From IMG/VR virus record IMGVR_UViG_3300000301_000108: DNA of 5,107 nucleotides; one strand, 5' to 3'. This document shows positions 1,904 to 4,903 of this stretch, piece by piece. The stretch comes from a virus. Lineage: Duplodnaviria; Heunggongvirae; Uroviricota; Caudoviricetes. The notes below the pieces were generated by a model that was given only the letters and a program-made list of their open reading frames with translations, searched no databases and was not told the origin of the DNA. Within the stretch, counting starts at the first letter, position 1. Each line of letters starts with the position of its first letter. The position numbers and the translations under genes were made by a program.

Positions 1904-2590
1904 TCAAAAAAATGAGCTGATAAGGGGAAGCCAATCCTCTGACACTTCGCGAGGTCGCGGTTTGCCGTGGAAAAAGATTATTCGGCAGTCTTTTGGTAAT
2001 GCCCCATTCCCCCTGGAGTAACGCGCGCTCGCATATTTCGAACCAGGTTCCACAACATCGGCCTTGTAACTTACAAACCATCCCGGATACAGATCCTGAA
2101 ATGCTGGTGTATCATCACCCATAACCTTCCGCAAAAACCCCTGATCACCCCAGCATTCAGTAGTAACACAACGAGCAATCCAACCTTCCGGATCTTGCCA
2201 GAATGCACTCCAGATATGCGCTTTTACACTATTTGGTATCCACAGGGCACCGCTGCCACGATATTGTGGATGGTAAAAATCCCTAAGCATGGTGAAGCTG
2301 GTTGGTGGATTCTCTAGGATTGGGCGTATATCACCGGCAATAACCGTGTCCAAATCCAGATAGAACAGATCATCGGTTATATCCGGTCGGAACAACTCGA
2401 TTTTCGCCCACCAGCCACGGCACTTTTGCCACTGGTTGATCAATGGGACAACTTTGACGCCAGGTACATGTAAACGCTTCAGGTCTGTCAGGCAAATAAT
2501 TTCATAGCCTTTTGGCAGTTGATTAACCAGCCACTGCACATCGGAAGCGTTATAGTCACCACCAGAGCGAAGAACTAAAGCAATCTTCAT
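1904..2590 (-). CDS. GT-A fold glycosyltransferase, GT8-like (retaining-type signature), about 229 aa
   Basis: ORF from ATG 2588-2590 to stop TGA 1904-1906. Motifs: N-terminal MKIALVLRSGGDYNA (compare GT8 starts such as LgtC MDIVFAADDNYA), DxD-type ...WWAKIELFRPDITDDLFYLDLDTVI (compare LgtC YARLKLGEYIADCDKVLYLDIDVLV), and C-terminal IFFHGKPRP (compare the GT8 H-x-G-x-x-KPW motif). The start could lie further upstream inside N-run 2594-2787. Confidence 0.7.
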   Translation of the reverse strand: MKIALVLRSGGDYNASDVQWLVNQLPKGYEIICLTDLKRLHVPGVKVVPLINQWQKCRGWWAKIELFRPDITDDLFYLDLDTVIAGDIRPILENPPTSFTMLRDFYHPQYRGSGALWIPNSVKAHIWSAFWQDPEGWIARCVTTECWGDQGFLRKVMGDDTPAFQDLYPGWFVSYKADVVEPGSKYASARYSRGNGALPKDCRIIFFHGKPRPREVSEDWLPLISSFF

Positions 2591-2666
2591 GCTNNNNNNN
2601 NNNNNNNNNNNNNNNNNNNNNNNNNNNNNNNNNNNNNNNNNNNNNNNNNNNNNNNNNNNNNNNNNN

Positions 2667-3356
2667 NNNNNNNNNNNNNNNNNNNNNNNNNNNNNNNNNN
2701 NNNNNNNNNNNNNNNNNNNNNNNNNNNNNNNNNNNNNNNNNNNNNNNNNNNNNNNNNNNNNNNNNNNNNNNNNNNNNNNNNNNNNNNAAACGATCTGCGC
2801 CAGAAATTTCGCCACCAATATCATCCATCGAATCACTGATACGCTCGCGCGCCCAGACAACGTTGAAAAGCGGCACCTCCTTACCGAATTGATATTCATT
2901 ATCCGGATAGTCGGCATGGGCTATAACGATAGTTTCTTGCCCGGTGTTCAACTCAATGATATAGGGCAGTCGTCTTACCAACTCCACCAGCGCCCTGGCT
3001 AATATTTCCTGATCAGCGTCCAGCATGAAGAACCATTGACCGCCATTCATTAGCCAGTTATTCACGTTGCCATCTGGACTTAACGCATCAATCATCAGCC
3101 GCTCATGGTTCCCCATCACTGCCCTGAACCAGGGCATCTGCAATAGTTCCAGACATTCGACATTTTCAGTACCGCGATCGATAAGGTCGCCGACCGATAT
3201 CAGTAAATCCTGCGCCGGGTCAAAATCCACACGATGGAGTTCGGACATCAGTCTGGTGTAGCAACCATGCAGATCACCAACAACCCAGACATTCCTGTAT
3301 TTGGTACCGTCGATACGGTGATAAATTGTGGGTGCCATCATGTATTCTTCAGCCAT
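2667..3356 (-). CDS. Ser/Thr protein phosphatase, phage lambda PPase (ORF221/NinI)-like metallophosphoesterase
   Basis: Translation aligns along its visible length to lambda phosphatase: [78 protein letters not shown]. It contains the PPP-family GDxHG / GDxxDRG / GNHE motifs. The C-terminal ~40 codons are masked, so the 3' end (~2667) is estimated from lambda PPase length. Start may be ATG 3356 or the downstream ATGs at 3341/3338. Confidence 0.9.
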
Positions 3357-3964
3357 TCTTTAAGAGTCATCTGCGGAATACCTCCCATTTTCCCGCATGA
3401 AACAACGTCAATCTGTTCACGCGCAGACTGGAATAACAAAGGCAGGTGACTTAGATTTTTTGGCGTGCCGCCGGAGTGAACGCGTGGTTCTTGTGTAGCG
3501 TCAACGCCCACCAGGGCGACATGTTTGAATCCGATATGGAAAGCCAGGTTCAGAGCACCATATGCACTATTGCCGCTGGCAATTTCATTCTCATCTTCGC
3601 AAAGGCCGAAATGTGCGGACCAGCGCCACGCCCACCACTCGGGAGAATTCGTATTTTTTGGCTCCGTGCCGCGCTCAGCCACACGACGGAAGCACAGAAC
3701 GCCATCTCTGACTTCACGTTCTTTAACATCGGGTAGTGCCATGCAATAACAAACACCACGGCGACGGCGGCCACGACCAACGCGCCGCATATTGTCTGGC
3801 GATGGATCAAGGGTGAAAAAATAAGAAGCGCGGTTAAGCCAGTCGATGGCCCCATTGACCGCTATAATCGGCACTCCGCGCGGCGCAACAAAGTTTGCGG
3901 CGCTTGGGCCACTGCCGACGATAATAACGCGATCACTGCCTCTAAATTTATTCTTGGGAAACAT
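3338..3964 (-). CDS. Sialyltransferase-like / DUF115 (MptE/Maf-like) fold protein, paralog A (208 aa)
   Basis: ATG 3962-3964, stop TGA 3338-3340. N-terminal motif [10 protein letters not shown]...[11 protein letters not shown] resembles the h-h-h-G-N/S-GPSL ... N motif of Cst-II-type sialyltransferases and DUF115/Maf proteins. Internal [26 protein letters not shown] matches the second conserved block of that fold. The stop overlaps the phosphatase start (TGATG). Confidence 0.75.
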
Positions 3965-4482
3965 TGAATTGCACTGCTCCTACTTGCATTCAAAATATGT
4001 AAATCTGCGTGTTTTTTGCGGGTATCCAGGAACTGCTGTTGCCATTTTGAAATAGACACCTGCGTTGGATTCCGTAGGGCTTGAGGGTGCGCGCCATGCC
4101 AATGAAGGCCGTTTTGCAGAGAACAGTCATAGCCGACTAATACCACTACTTCAGCCCCTGATTCAGCAGCCAGACTGATAGCCTGCGCGCCGCTATTTAC
4201 CCCTTCCGCCGGTCCACAATATCGCCTGTACTCCAACGAAAATGATTTCGCCGCCGCCAGGTTGGCTGTCACTTTGCGGAATCTCCCTCCCGGTATGGTG
4301 GATCCGTATTGCTTCCACCATGACAAATCACCGGCGTATAAGGCATAAATGTCATCGAACATCTGCCAGGAATTGTTAACCGCGATGATTGAACAGCCAG
4401 TTTTTTCTATAGCAGCACAGTCCTCACGAGTGAGTGACGGACCGCTACCGACACAAAAAACAGTCCTAGTCGCCCTGGGTGG
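3862..4482 (-). CDS. Sialyltransferase-like / DUF115 (MptE/Maf-like) fold protein, paralog B; 5' end hidden in N-run 4483-4598
   Basis: The frame is open from stop 3862-3864 upward past the annotated ATG at 4362 into the N-run. The upstream extension reads ...TRTVFCVGSGPSLTREDCAAIEKTGCSIIAVNNSWQMFDD, the same GSGPS...IIAVN signature as paralog A, so the true start is upstream of 4362 (probably just inside the N-run). Second block SGAQAISLAAESGAEVVVLVGYD is present. Confidence 0.7.
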   Translation of the reverse strand, partial: PPRATRTVFCVGSGPSLTREDCAAIEKTGCSIIAVNNSWQMFDDIYALYAGDLSWWKQYGSTIPGGRFRKVTANLAAAKSFSLEYRRYCGPAEGVNSGAQAISLAAESGAEVVVLVGYDCSLQNGLHWHGAHPQALRNPTQVSISKWQQQFLDTRKKHADLHILNASRSSAIQCFPRINLEAVIALLSSAVAQAPQTLLRRAECRL

Positions 4483-4598
4483 NNNNNNNNNNNNNNNNNN
4501 NNNNNNNNNNNNNNNNNNNNNNNNNNNNNNNNNNNNNNNNNNNNNNNNNNNNNNNNNNNNNNNNNNNNNNNNNNNNNNNNNNNNNNNNNNNNNNNNNN

Positions 4599-4697
4599 AT
4601 TCATTTCAGCGATTACCGGGTCCACTACAGCATCTGCTTCCTGTTCATTACGCGGCATGATCGATGCCAGCGATTCATAATTAGCCTTGAATGACAC
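4599..4697 (-). CDS. Small hypothetical ORF (MSFKANYESLASIMPRNEQEADAVVDPVIAEMN...), 3' end hidden in N-run
   Basis: GTG at 4695-4697 preceded by GGGAGA with 6-nt spacing (a strong Shine-Dalgarno). The ORF track extends this frame to a GTG at 4739, which lacks an SD. Its frame differs from paralog B, so it must terminate inside the masked run. Confidence 0.35.
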
Positions 4698-4739
4698 GAT
4701 TATTCTCCCGATGTTAATGTGCGCTATATCAAAGAGCAC

Positions 4740-4808
4740 ATATGCACTAATTAATTTATTATTTTAAGCAGCATACAACCACTTGTCGCCGTTCAATACA
4801 TGCTCAAT
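4740..4808 (-). promoter_or_regulatory. AT-rich intergenic region, candidate internal promoter for downstream minus-strand genes
   Basis: About 70-bp AT-rich stretch between the VRR-NUC-like gene and the next ORF. The minus strand carries TTGAAC and TTGTAT -35-like hexamers and TATGCT / ATTAAT -10-like hexamers, but no pair has ideal spacing. Confidence 0.25.
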
Positions 4809-4903
4809 NNNNNNNNNNNNNNNNNNNNNNNNNNNNNNNNNNNNNNNNNNNNNNNNNNNNNNNNNNNNNNNNNNNNNNNNNNNNNNNNNNNNNNNNNNNN
4901 NNN

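Follow-up and report, generated by a model that had tools for sequence, protein, structure and literature searches.

pmgO and pmgP of P1-type phages, an ancient duplicate pair of probable sugar-transferase genes whose conserved overlap is dual-coding over part of its length

The DNA analyzed here (the window; 5,107 nt, IMG/VR record IMGVR_UViG_3300000301_000108) is 98.8-99.3% identical at the nucleotide level to records of P1-type phages (Punavirus) and is, judged by this match, a segment of such a phage. Two minus-strand genes, called paralogs A and B in an earlier note, correspond to pmgP and pmgO of P1 (reference records, also for hdmB and hdmC: GenBank NC_005856, AF234172 and AF503408). 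P1 pmgO/pmgP and P7 hdmB/hdmC are the same genes as those of the window (98-99% nucleotide identity), with the same 103-nt overlap, already annotated in the GenBank P1 and P7 records, and in the same operon downstream of Oppp. The PmgP protein of the window differs from that of P1 by two amino acids. GenBank labels the two products as 'putative morphogenetic function' or 'head morphogenesis'. The genes and the operator are placed as follows.

3338-3964, minus strand: pmgP (paralog A; P1_gp089; hdmC in P7), 208 aa, predicted MptE-like/Maf/sialyltransferase-like fold
3862-4600, minus strand: pmgO (paralog B; P1_gp088; hdmB in P7), 220 aa in P1, annotated ATG at 4600-4598
4466-4697, minus strand: pmgN (51 aa in P1), first gene of the operon, BLAST-mapped from the P1 annotation and partly masked
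4741-4757, plus strand: Oppp (Op83), C1 repressor operator of pmgN-pmgO-pmgP-ppp-pmgQ, BLAST-mapped from the P1 annotation

The pmgO ORF ends at 3862 on the minus strand, and its upstream end runs into a run of Ns (4483-4598) that masks the start. The ORF described in the earlier note is present, and its annotated ATG maps from P1 to window positions 4600-4598 instead of beginning at 4598. The frame looks broken in the window because the N run is 76 nt too long (116 nt vs. 40 nt in P1 and P7). As annotated, pmgN overlaps the start of pmgO by 59 nt. On this map, pmgO and pmgP are neighbours in the operon pmgN-pmgO-pmgP-ppp-pmgQ, which C1 would repress.

The two proteins had been noted to share two motif blocks, and both blocks are indeed present in each.

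3902-3928, minus strand: strand beta1 and glycine loop of PmgP, V-I-I-V-G-S-G-P-S, residues 13-21, with invariant columns in alignment A3
4435-4461, minus strand: strand beta1 and glycine loop of PmgO, V-F-C-V-G-S-G-P-S, residues 22-30, with G-P-S invariant in alignments A2, A4 and A5
3500-3577, minus strand: second shared block of PmgP, residues 130-155 (26 aa), matching Pfam MptE-like and WaaZ
4126-4197, minus strand: second shared block of PmgO, N-S-G-A-Q-A-I-S-L-A-A-E-S-G-A-E-V-V-V-L-V-G-Y-D, residues 110-133, matching Pfam MptE-like, Cst-II and WaaZ

Structure models place beta1 at residues 12-16 of PmgP and 21-25 of PmgO, and the I-I-A-V-N part of the first block lies directly beyond the G-S-G-P-S coordinates in both genes. 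Pairwise BLASTP of PmgO against PmgP recovers only the first block (E 0.003). The family profiles, compared with hhalign, align over 162 columns (probability 97.5%, E 7.8e-12), spanning about residues 17-202 of PmgO and 8-208 of PmgP; a fused homologue (P0051, see below) was left out of the PmgO alignment for this comparison, since its PmgP half would have matched itself. PHROG cross-matches were found at 2.2e-5 and 6.2e-4, and tblastn with PmgP matches solo PmgO-like ORFs at 6e-5 to 9e-4. The extent and score of the profile alignment therefore put the likeness far beyond chance. pmgO and pmgP are an ancient duplicate pair of genes, probably for sugar transferases.

AF2 models of PmgP and PmgO (pLDDT 93.9 and 87.6, respectively) match best the structure of a Maf glycosyltransferase, and also those of Cst-I and GT29 sialyltransferases. 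The modelled fold is the one shared by MptE and the central domain of Maf, and the same as that of the GT42 sialyltransferases Cst-I and Cst-II; each protein is a single domain of about 200 aa with an MptE-like/Maf/sialyltransferase-type nucleotide-sugar fold. A fold search of BFVD returned only uncharacterized phage proteins and MptE-like/DUF115 labels. At the sequence level, neither protein reaches the curated 34.6-bit gathering threshold of Pfam PF01973 (MptE-like, DUF115), with 20.9 bits for PmgP and 22.9 bits for PmgO, and the match covers only the last 30-36 profile positions; precomputed PF01973 hits are present on some homologues. The architecture of the Maf flagellin glycosyltransferases (about 600 aa, multi-domain, in a flagellar context; about 630 aa with extra domains in 5mu5) is not found here, the window encoding single domains of 208 and 220 aa in a phage early operon.

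The closest experimentally studied sequence relative of these proteins is WaaZ (CAZy family GT73), the Kdo-III transferase that acts on the inner core of the LPS in E. coli and Salmonella. The PmgP family aligns with the WaaZ family over almost its full length (hhalign probability 78.8%, E 1.7e-5, 192 columns), including an I-I-x-x-S-G-P-(T)S motif, I-A-V-N-G and an A-x-x-A-x-x-I-A-Y-x-L-x-x-x-x-I-x-x-x-G-x-D block followed by a conserved Arg, while the PmgO family shares its C-terminal half (42.5%, E 2.6e-4, 83 columns). A single WaaZ sequence reaches only 15-16% probability. WaaZ proteins carry PF01973 and PF27901, and the fused homologue shows faint matches to both families. By sequence, then, the WaaZ link appears moderate for PmgP and weak for PmgO, below what establishes membership. 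WaaZ also differs in being a single chromosomal gene of the waa locus encoding about 283 aa, whereas PmgO and PmgP are about 200 aa, phage-borne and duplicated.

Similarity to the Campylobacter enzymes Cst-I and Cst-II (2p56, 1ro7; GT42) is not significant by sequence: the PmgO profile matches Cst-II chains at E 0.28-0.93, with its N-terminal G-x-G-P-S-L block aligned to G-N-G-P-S-L of Cst-II, and the PmgP profile gives no match to them. E. coli K-12 is not known to produce CMP-sialic acid or CMP-pseudaminic acid. For these two reasons, we regard the PHROG/pharokka label 'alpha-2,3-sialyltransferase' as a fold-level label only. A PDB sequence search with the PmgP profile returned nothing meaningful, and an NCBIfam search with PmgO, PmgP and PmgQ gave no match. 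In PmgO, G-Y-D-C-S is followed by an invariant H-W-H-G-x-H; in PmgP, the His of L-S-H-L-P is invariant. An additional C-terminal domain of about 310 aa is present in some PmgO-like proteins; it has no Pfam match, matches the heptosyltransferase WaaF only below threshold (E 0.16) and does not match WaaC.

The overlap of pmgO and pmgP, described earlier as unusually long, does extend over 103 nt (3862-3964), with pmgP in the -1 frame relative to pmgO. Its elements are the following.

3962-3964, minus strand: ATG start codon of pmgP, formed by the last base of PmgO Q187 (CAA) and the first two bases of C188 (TGT)
3977-3981, minus strand: AGGAG Shine-Dalgarno motif for pmgP, read from the sequence, in the PmgO R182-S183 codons AGG AGC
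3916-3964, minus strand: dual-coding part of the overlap, PmgO C188-S203 and PmgP leader M1-V16 in the -1 frame
3862-3915, minus strand: run-on part of the overlap, 54 nt, PmgO A204-L220 and its TAG stop

The pmgP frame has an in-frame TAG five codons upstream of the ATG at 3964, and contains no ATG, GTG or TTG between this ATG and the invariant glycine loop at codons 13-21. The AGGAG motif lies 12 nt upstream of the ATG, longer than the optimal spacing. Of 18 diverged adjacent pairs, which share ancestry, 15 have a pmgP start (NTG) in the -1 frame on the Cys codon of C-[F/Y]-P in PmgO, and in these 15 the overlap ranges from 40 to 133 nt; the same placement recurs in pairs down to about 37% identity. 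The pmgP frame is -1 in 16 of the 18 pairs and +1 in the other two, and one pair has a 4-nt overlap. GGAG or GAGG is present at the position of the pmgP Shine-Dalgarno motif in 13 of 15 paired pmgO genes vs. 4 of 60 solo genes (Fisher p 1.7e-9, the pairs sharing ancestry so that the counts are not independent events). The two-frame arrangement occurs in 19 phage records and in 80 IMG/VR contigs of P1 type, and one phage (P0051, locus L163) encodes both domains in a single 376-aa ORF. The overlap is thus real and evolutionarily conserved, not an annotation artefact, because there is no alternative pmgP start and the same start is used in diverged pairs.

The two parts of the overlap differ in their substitution patterns. 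In the first 49 nt (3916-3964), which encode the conserved C-terminal helix of PmgO (C-F-P-x-I-x-L-E-x-x-I-A-x-L-S, C188-S203), identity is 0.69-0.81 across all three codon positions. The lowest of these values, 0.69, is above that of the least-conserved position in every one of 317 single-coding control windows of 48 nt, which is at most 0.54. Purifying selection acts here in both frames, and within the overlap it does so only over these 49 nt. The remaining 54 nt (3862-3915) are read out of frame across the codons of PmgP G17-A35 (G-S-G-P-S...P-I-I-A), with an identity by pmgP codon position of 0.88/0.84/0.37. The most variable site is therefore position 2 of the pmgO frame. We found no constraint in the pmgO frame over this segment, substitutions following the pmgP frame only. 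The PmgO tails of homologues vary in length, some being shorter by 11 or 18 codons and others ending at unrelated points, and their sequences are unrelated; in the AF2 model, pLDDT declines from 79 to 67 along the tail. The last 17 residues of PmgO (204-220) are an unselected, lineage-specific run-on. The long overlap proposed earlier is therefore dual-coding for 49 nt and not for the other 54 nt, so that the possibility that the tail of paralog B is a local read-through holds for half of the overlap.

The arrangement resembles overprinting overlaps of phages and bacteria: two conserved ORFs overlap by 103 nt in different frames, and where one protein is conserved, the other is poorly structured. 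It differs in that dual constraint covers 49 nt only, the remainder being neutral run-on, and in that the overlap has created no new protein. The length of the run-on, with overlaps of 40-133 nt among relatives, is set by where a stop falls by chance in the -1 frame of pmgP.

Two other accounts of the overlap were considered. In prokaryotic annotations, an overlap of more than 60 nt often reflects a mispredicted start, and in L165 and L168 one gene caller did place the start of the pmgP homologue further downstream. pmgP might begin downstream of the pmgO stop, or pmgO-pmgP might be a single gene broken by a frameshift error in the sequence, but we consider this account almost certainly wrong: the pmgP ORF opens only five codons before its ATG and offers no other start before the glycine loop; a downstream start would delete beta1 and the G-S-G-P-S that is invariant in the PmgP family; the arrangement recurs in the phage records and contigs counted above and in diverged pairs with different overlap lengths; and the substitution pattern is that of dual constraint. 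A mis-annotated start or sequencing artefact is refuted by this start-codon, glycine-loop, recurrence and substitution evidence. It is also very improbable that a programmed -1 ribosomal frameshift, or slippage during transcription, makes use of the overlap to join PmgO to PmgP as in the fused homologue. The predominance of the -1 frame (16/18 pairs), the existence of that two-domain homologue and a heptamer, A-AAT-TTA, in the pmgO frame of P1 at I192-N193-L194 would fit such an event. However, A-AAT-TTA was seen at that place in P1 only and is missing there in the 70%-identical relatives L167 and L169. Other heptamers, in L085 and L118, lie at unrelated, non-sensical places; the chance expectation for a stretch of 34 codons is about 13%. 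Shifting frame at the heptamer of P1 would remove the conserved last helix of PmgO and, as the conserved PmgO end and the conserved PmgP start overlap by about 10 nt, no -1 shift keeps both. pmgP also has its own conserved start codon and Shine-Dalgarno motif, and the two +1 pairs and the pair with a 4-nt overlap do not fit a -1 shift. With no conserved slippery heptamer at a sensible fusion position, programmed -1 frameshift fusion was rejected.

As for activity, PmgO and PmgP could instead be small-molecule pyrophosphokinases of the MptE or thiamine-pyrophosphokinase type, making or destroying a metabolite or signalling nucleotide during lytic growth. The sole Pfam match, to PF01973 MptE-like, points this way, as does the presence in or near the operon of two phosphatases, the Metallophos protein Ppp (same operon) and the PNKP-type HAD protein Pap (nearby). 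We nevertheless judge this reading unlikely, though it deserves some weight, since the best structural match is to a Maf glycosyltransferase, with Cst-I and GT29 sialyltransferases matching too, among studied proteins only the Kdo transferase WaaZ gives a significant profile match over the full length, the N-terminal G-x-G-P-S-L block has its counterpart in G-N-G-P-S-L of Cst-II, and the neighbouring pmgQ is a glycosyltransferase by PHROG match. The pyrophosphokinase reading leaves the gene anatomy (paralogues, conserved overlap, run-on tail) unchanged.

The explanation we favour, with reasonable though far from complete confidence, is a paralogous pair of CMP-ulosonic-acid transferases with a conserved internal pmgP start and a run-on PmgO tail. 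PmgO and PmgP would most likely be glycosyltransferases using a CMP-activated ulosonic acid, probably CMP-Kdo. pmgP would be translated from its own ATG, which lies in the -1 frame within the pmgO codons for Q-C-F-P, with the AGGAG of its ribosome-binding site supplied by the codons of the invariant Ser-Arg of PmgO. The first 49 nt of the overlap encode both the last conserved helix of PmgO and a disordered PmgP leader of 12-16 residues, with both frames constrained; past this helix, the pmgO frame simply continues to its first stop, a TAG in the P-I-I-A codons of pmgP, adding 17 unselected residues. The earlier note proposed that the two proteins may have different donor or acceptor specificities. 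They probably act as a pair, either as a heteromer or in consecutive steps, a partnership suggested by the one phage that encodes both domains as one polypeptide and by the adjacency of the genes.

Both genes are dispensable under laboratory conditions. A CRISPRi screen found pmgO and pmgP non-essential (PMC10695390), and a table in that paper cites a knockout survey (PMC9024508) for the same result. The text of the survey names only PmgC and PmgG among previously uncharacterized Pmg proteins in the virion proteome (PMC9024508). The literature searched assigns no function to pmgO or pmgP, and the labels 'morphogenetic function' and 'head morphogenesis' are not borne out.

WaaZ-type Kdo addition accompanies loss of the terminal Glc-Hep disaccharide of the LPS outer core (PMC6358824); since the outer core is altered in this way, a WaaZ-like pair encoded by the phage could act on the phage's own receptor. 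One could thus speculate that PmgO and PmgP form a two-subunit WaaZ-related Kdo transferase, induced on C1 derepression, that remodels the host LPS core, the P1 receptor, although we hold this to be quite a long shot. If true, such remodelling could keep out superinfecting phages or prevent progeny from adsorbing to debris, and the conserved dual-coding junction would set the ratio in which the two subunits are made. For these two P1 genes, the present analysis replaces the labels 'morphogenetic', 'head morphogenesis' and 'alpha-2,3-sialyltransferase': their products are diverged paralogues with a WaaZ/Maf-like transferase fold that the phage can do without in the laboratory. The analysis also provides a worked example of how a long annotated overlap can be divided into a part constrained in both frames and a neutral run-on.

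The window, a phage P1-type (Punavirus) segment, has all of its genes on the minus strand; positions 3300-4760 match 19 phage records at 97.8-99.3% identity (megablast), P1, P7, RCS47, phi456 and SJ46 among them. The two tandem genes that an earlier note had singled out as paralogs A and B correspond to pmgP and pmgO, respectively.

Genes and signals around the overlap
1904-2593, minus strand, pmgQ: PHROG glycosyltransferase with a D-L-D motif
2587-3356, minus strand, ppp: lambda-type Metallophos Ser/Thr phosphatase
3338-3964, minus strand, pmgP (paralog A; P1_gp089, hdmC in P7): 208 aa, from P1/P7 annotation and ORF
3862-3864, minus strand, TAG stop of pmgO (paralog B; P1_gp088, hdmB in P7): 220 aa, from P1/P7 annotation and ORF
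3977-3981, minus strand, Shine-Dalgarno (SD) AGGAG for pmgP, predicted from sequence: 12 nt upstream of the ATG

The 103-nt overlap between the two genes was correctly recognized in that note and had been annotated before, in both the P1 and P7 records; its sequence is identical to P1 and differs from P7 by one base. Further overlaps in the P1 annotation link pmgP to ppp (19 nt) and ppp to pmgQ (4 nt). The upstream end of pmgO enters an N run that is longer in the window than in P1 or P7, placing the annotated pmgO ATG at 4600-4598; the 76 surplus bases break the apparent pmgO frame. Five N runs are each 76-81 nt longer than the corresponding P1/P7 stretch, so coordinates and frames across them deviate from the real sequence. 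Padding, scaffold gaps and hidden inserts are candidate causes.

N runs (length in the window vs. P1/P7)
720-815: 96 vs. 15 nt
1397-1486: 90 vs. 10 nt
2594-2787: 194 vs. 117 nt
4483-4598: 116 vs. 40 nt
4809-4903: 95 vs. 15 nt

pmgN and pmgO overlap too (window 4466-4600; 5167-5225 in P1 locus L001), by 59 nt with the P1 annotation, by 26 nt should Met12 be the pmgO start, and by 38-41 nt in Salmonella and Klebsiella relatives. The true pmgO start is uncertain, since the first 14 PmgO residues are modelled with pLDDT below 50.

PmgO and PmgP are real, old paralogues, as the earlier note had proposed. Pairwise BLASTP detects the G-S-G-P-S...I-I-A-V-N block alone (E 0.003), and homology extends beyond such short motifs at the level of family profiles. 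With 51 homologues for PmgO and 328 for PmgP, and with a PmgO-PmgP fusion protein (P0051) left out of the PmgO profile, the two families align over 162 columns (hhalign, probability 97.5%, E 7.8e-12), spanning about residues 17-202 of PmgO and 8-208 of PmgP. PHROG profiles cross-match (2.2e-5 and 6.2e-4), and a PmgP query finds solo PmgO-like ORFs at 6e-5 to 9e-4 (tblastn). The two proteins also have a common fold, with the same structures heading both match lists, followed in each by SteA, thiamine pyrophosphokinases and GT29 sialyltransferases.

Structure matches (values in the two lists)
Maf glycosyltransferase, 5mu5: 13.4 and 14.1
Archaeal MptE pyrophosphokinase, 8sd5: 12.6 and 11.6
Cst-I sialyltransferase, 2p56: 10.7 and 11.1

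PmgO-like genes in bacterial genomes are mostly solo, a PmgP-like gene lying within 3 kb in only 5 of 80 loci. Two PmgO-like genes are adjacent or close in three bacterial loci (L092, L125 and L154), the second copy being 27-28% identical to PmgO; tandem duplication seems recurrent in this family.

The PmgO family core ends near residue 202 with C-F-P-x-I-x-L-E-x-x-I-A-x-L-S, a segment that corresponds in the alignment to the C-terminal helix of PmgP. Among 18 adjacent pmgO-pmgP pairs gathered from bacterial genomes, IMG/VR contigs and assemblies, 15 place the pmgP start (ATG or GTG) on the Cys codon of the PmgO C-[F/Y]-P, in the -1 frame, the most diverged of them (Microbulbifer, L118) having about 37% PmgO identity. 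Overlap lengths in these 15 pairs are 40, 49, 67, 70, 100, 103, 109 or 133 nt. In the other three pairs, which are more distant, the PmgP leader is missing and the genes share 4 or 23 nt. An internal GGAG-type SD, formed by codons of the invariant Ser-Arg of PmgO or the next Thr-Glu, occurs in 13 of the 15 paired pmgO genes vs. 4 of 60 solo PmgO-like genes (Fisher p 1.7e-9, for pairs that share ancestry), and arises in three different codon contexts. One IMG/VR contig (2883489344_000002; L170:2005-2349) carries a seemingly truncated or frameshifted pmgO remnant about 150 nt upstream of an intact pmgP; pmgP can thus persist without an intact overlapping pmgO.

Identity to P1 was scored by codon position in an alignment of seven P1-like pairs (50-100% PmgO identity).

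Identity at codon positions 1/2/3
pmgO only, pmgO frame: 0.64/0.76/0.38
pmgP only, pmgP frame: 0.75/0.82/0.41
3916-3964 (first 49 nt of the overlap), either frame: 0.69-0.81 at all three
3862-3915 (last 54 nt), pmgP frame: 0.88/0.84/0.37

No codon position is relaxed in 3916-3964, where the least conserved position (0.69) exceeds that of all 317 single-coding 48-nt windows (mean 0.39, maximum 0.54). The pattern in 3862-3915 is purely that of pmgP, and variation is greatest at the second position of the pmgO frame, indicating that PmgO residues 204-220 are not under protein-level selection. Beyond the core, homologues carry 0 to about 40 residues of unrelated sequence, so that the conserved PmgO tail sought in homologues was not found. 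The pmgO stop follows the core directly in L085, and comes 11 codons earlier in three close relatives (L167, L169 and L174), where an Ala-to-Met difference in PmgP produces a TGA. Model confidence is lower in the tail (pLDDT 79 falling to 67), and a 17-codon stop-free run has about a 44% chance (uniform-codon estimate). The long overlap is thus of two kinds: a deeply conserved, dual-coding junction of 49 nt with a predicted embedded ribosome-binding site, and 54 nt of neutral run-on.

Neither a mis-called start nor a sequencing frameshift can explain the overlap. The pmgP ORF is open only five codons upstream of its ATG at 3964, and the start cannot be moved downstream, there being no ATG, GTG or TTG before the invariant beta1/G-loop (codons 13-21). 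About 100 P1-type sequences, as well as diverged pairs, have this arrangement, and the substitution pattern shows dual constraint. A programmed -1 frameshift joining PmgO to PmgP at the P1 heptamer A-AAT-TTA is unlikely: the heptamer is not kept in 70%-identical relatives, the shift would delete the conserved last helix of PmgO, and pmgP is equipped with a conserved start codon and SD of its own.

What might the pair do? The CRISPRi paper (PMC10695390) classes both genes as non-essential, from its own screen and with reference to the knockout survey (PMC9024508). In that survey 24 of 29 single-gene knockouts had no plaquing or antirestriction defect, and PmgC and PmgG are the only Pmg proteins that its text presents as newly virion-associated. 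Their 'morphogenetic' names are therefore unsupported. The P1 RefSeq misspelling 'norphogenetic protein' has propagated to many NCBI names of homologues (Escherichia, Salmonella, Citrobacter, Erwinia, Ochrobactrum and others); other records label them 'alpha-2,3-sialyltransferase'. Knock-down of pmgN (4697-4739 region) lowered plating about 100-fold, although its deletion is reported viable, a contradiction noted by the authors, who discuss CRISPRi polar effects in general terms; guides in pmgO or pmgP caused no such drop (PMC10695390). The operon lies behind the C1 operator Oppp (P1 annotation), so repression in lysogens is expected.

The fold is common to CMP-ulosonic-acid transferases (Maf, GT42, GT29) and pyrophosphokinases, and the latter activity is the main rival to a glycosyltransferase function. 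Judged by sequence profiles, WaaZ, the LPS inner-core Kdo-III transferase, is the closest studied relative. WaaZ proteins contain PF01973 and PF27901; their family aligns with that of PmgP over 192 columns (probability 78.8%, E 1.7e-5) and with that of PmgO over 83 (42.5%, E 2.6e-4). For neighbouring pmgQ the PHROG match is a glycosyltransferase family (E 2e-127), and neither Pfam nor NCBIfam gives a hit. Because of the WaaZ link and this neighbour we favour, with moderate confidence, a putative glycosyltransferase pair. E. coli K-12 is not known to make any CMP-ulosonic donor other than CMP-Kdo, which is thus the likely donor. In one phage contig (L163) the two domains form a single 376-aa protein, with a five-residue linker at the place of the P1 overlap; this is Rosetta-stone evidence that PmgO and PmgP may act together.

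Six proteobacterial loci encode fusions in which a conserved domain of about 310 aa follows the PmgO-like one; this C-terminal domain starts with G-M-x-G-L-G-D-x-I-Y-Q-R, ends in a C-x-C...H-x-C cluster and has no Pfam match.

PmgO-like fusions to the ~310-aa domain
L103:2983-4479
L117:948-2402
L122:3001-4365
L123:3001-4521
L130:3001-4539
L158:3001-4560

The best PDB match of this domain, below threshold, is the ADP-heptose LPS heptosyltransferase II, WaaF (E 0.16), which hints at an LPS-related role. WaaZ-dependent Kdo-III addition goes together with an outer core that has lost its terminal Glc-Hep disaccharide (PMC6358824); remodelling of the LPS core by PmgO and PmgP would be a speculative extension. 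Globally, pmgO and pmgP are an uncharacterised pair in a known enzyme superfamily, with a gene overlap also of known kind; new here are their full-length homology and common fold, the link to WaaZ, and the division of the overlap into a dual-coding junction with its predicted ribosome-binding site and a neutral run-on.
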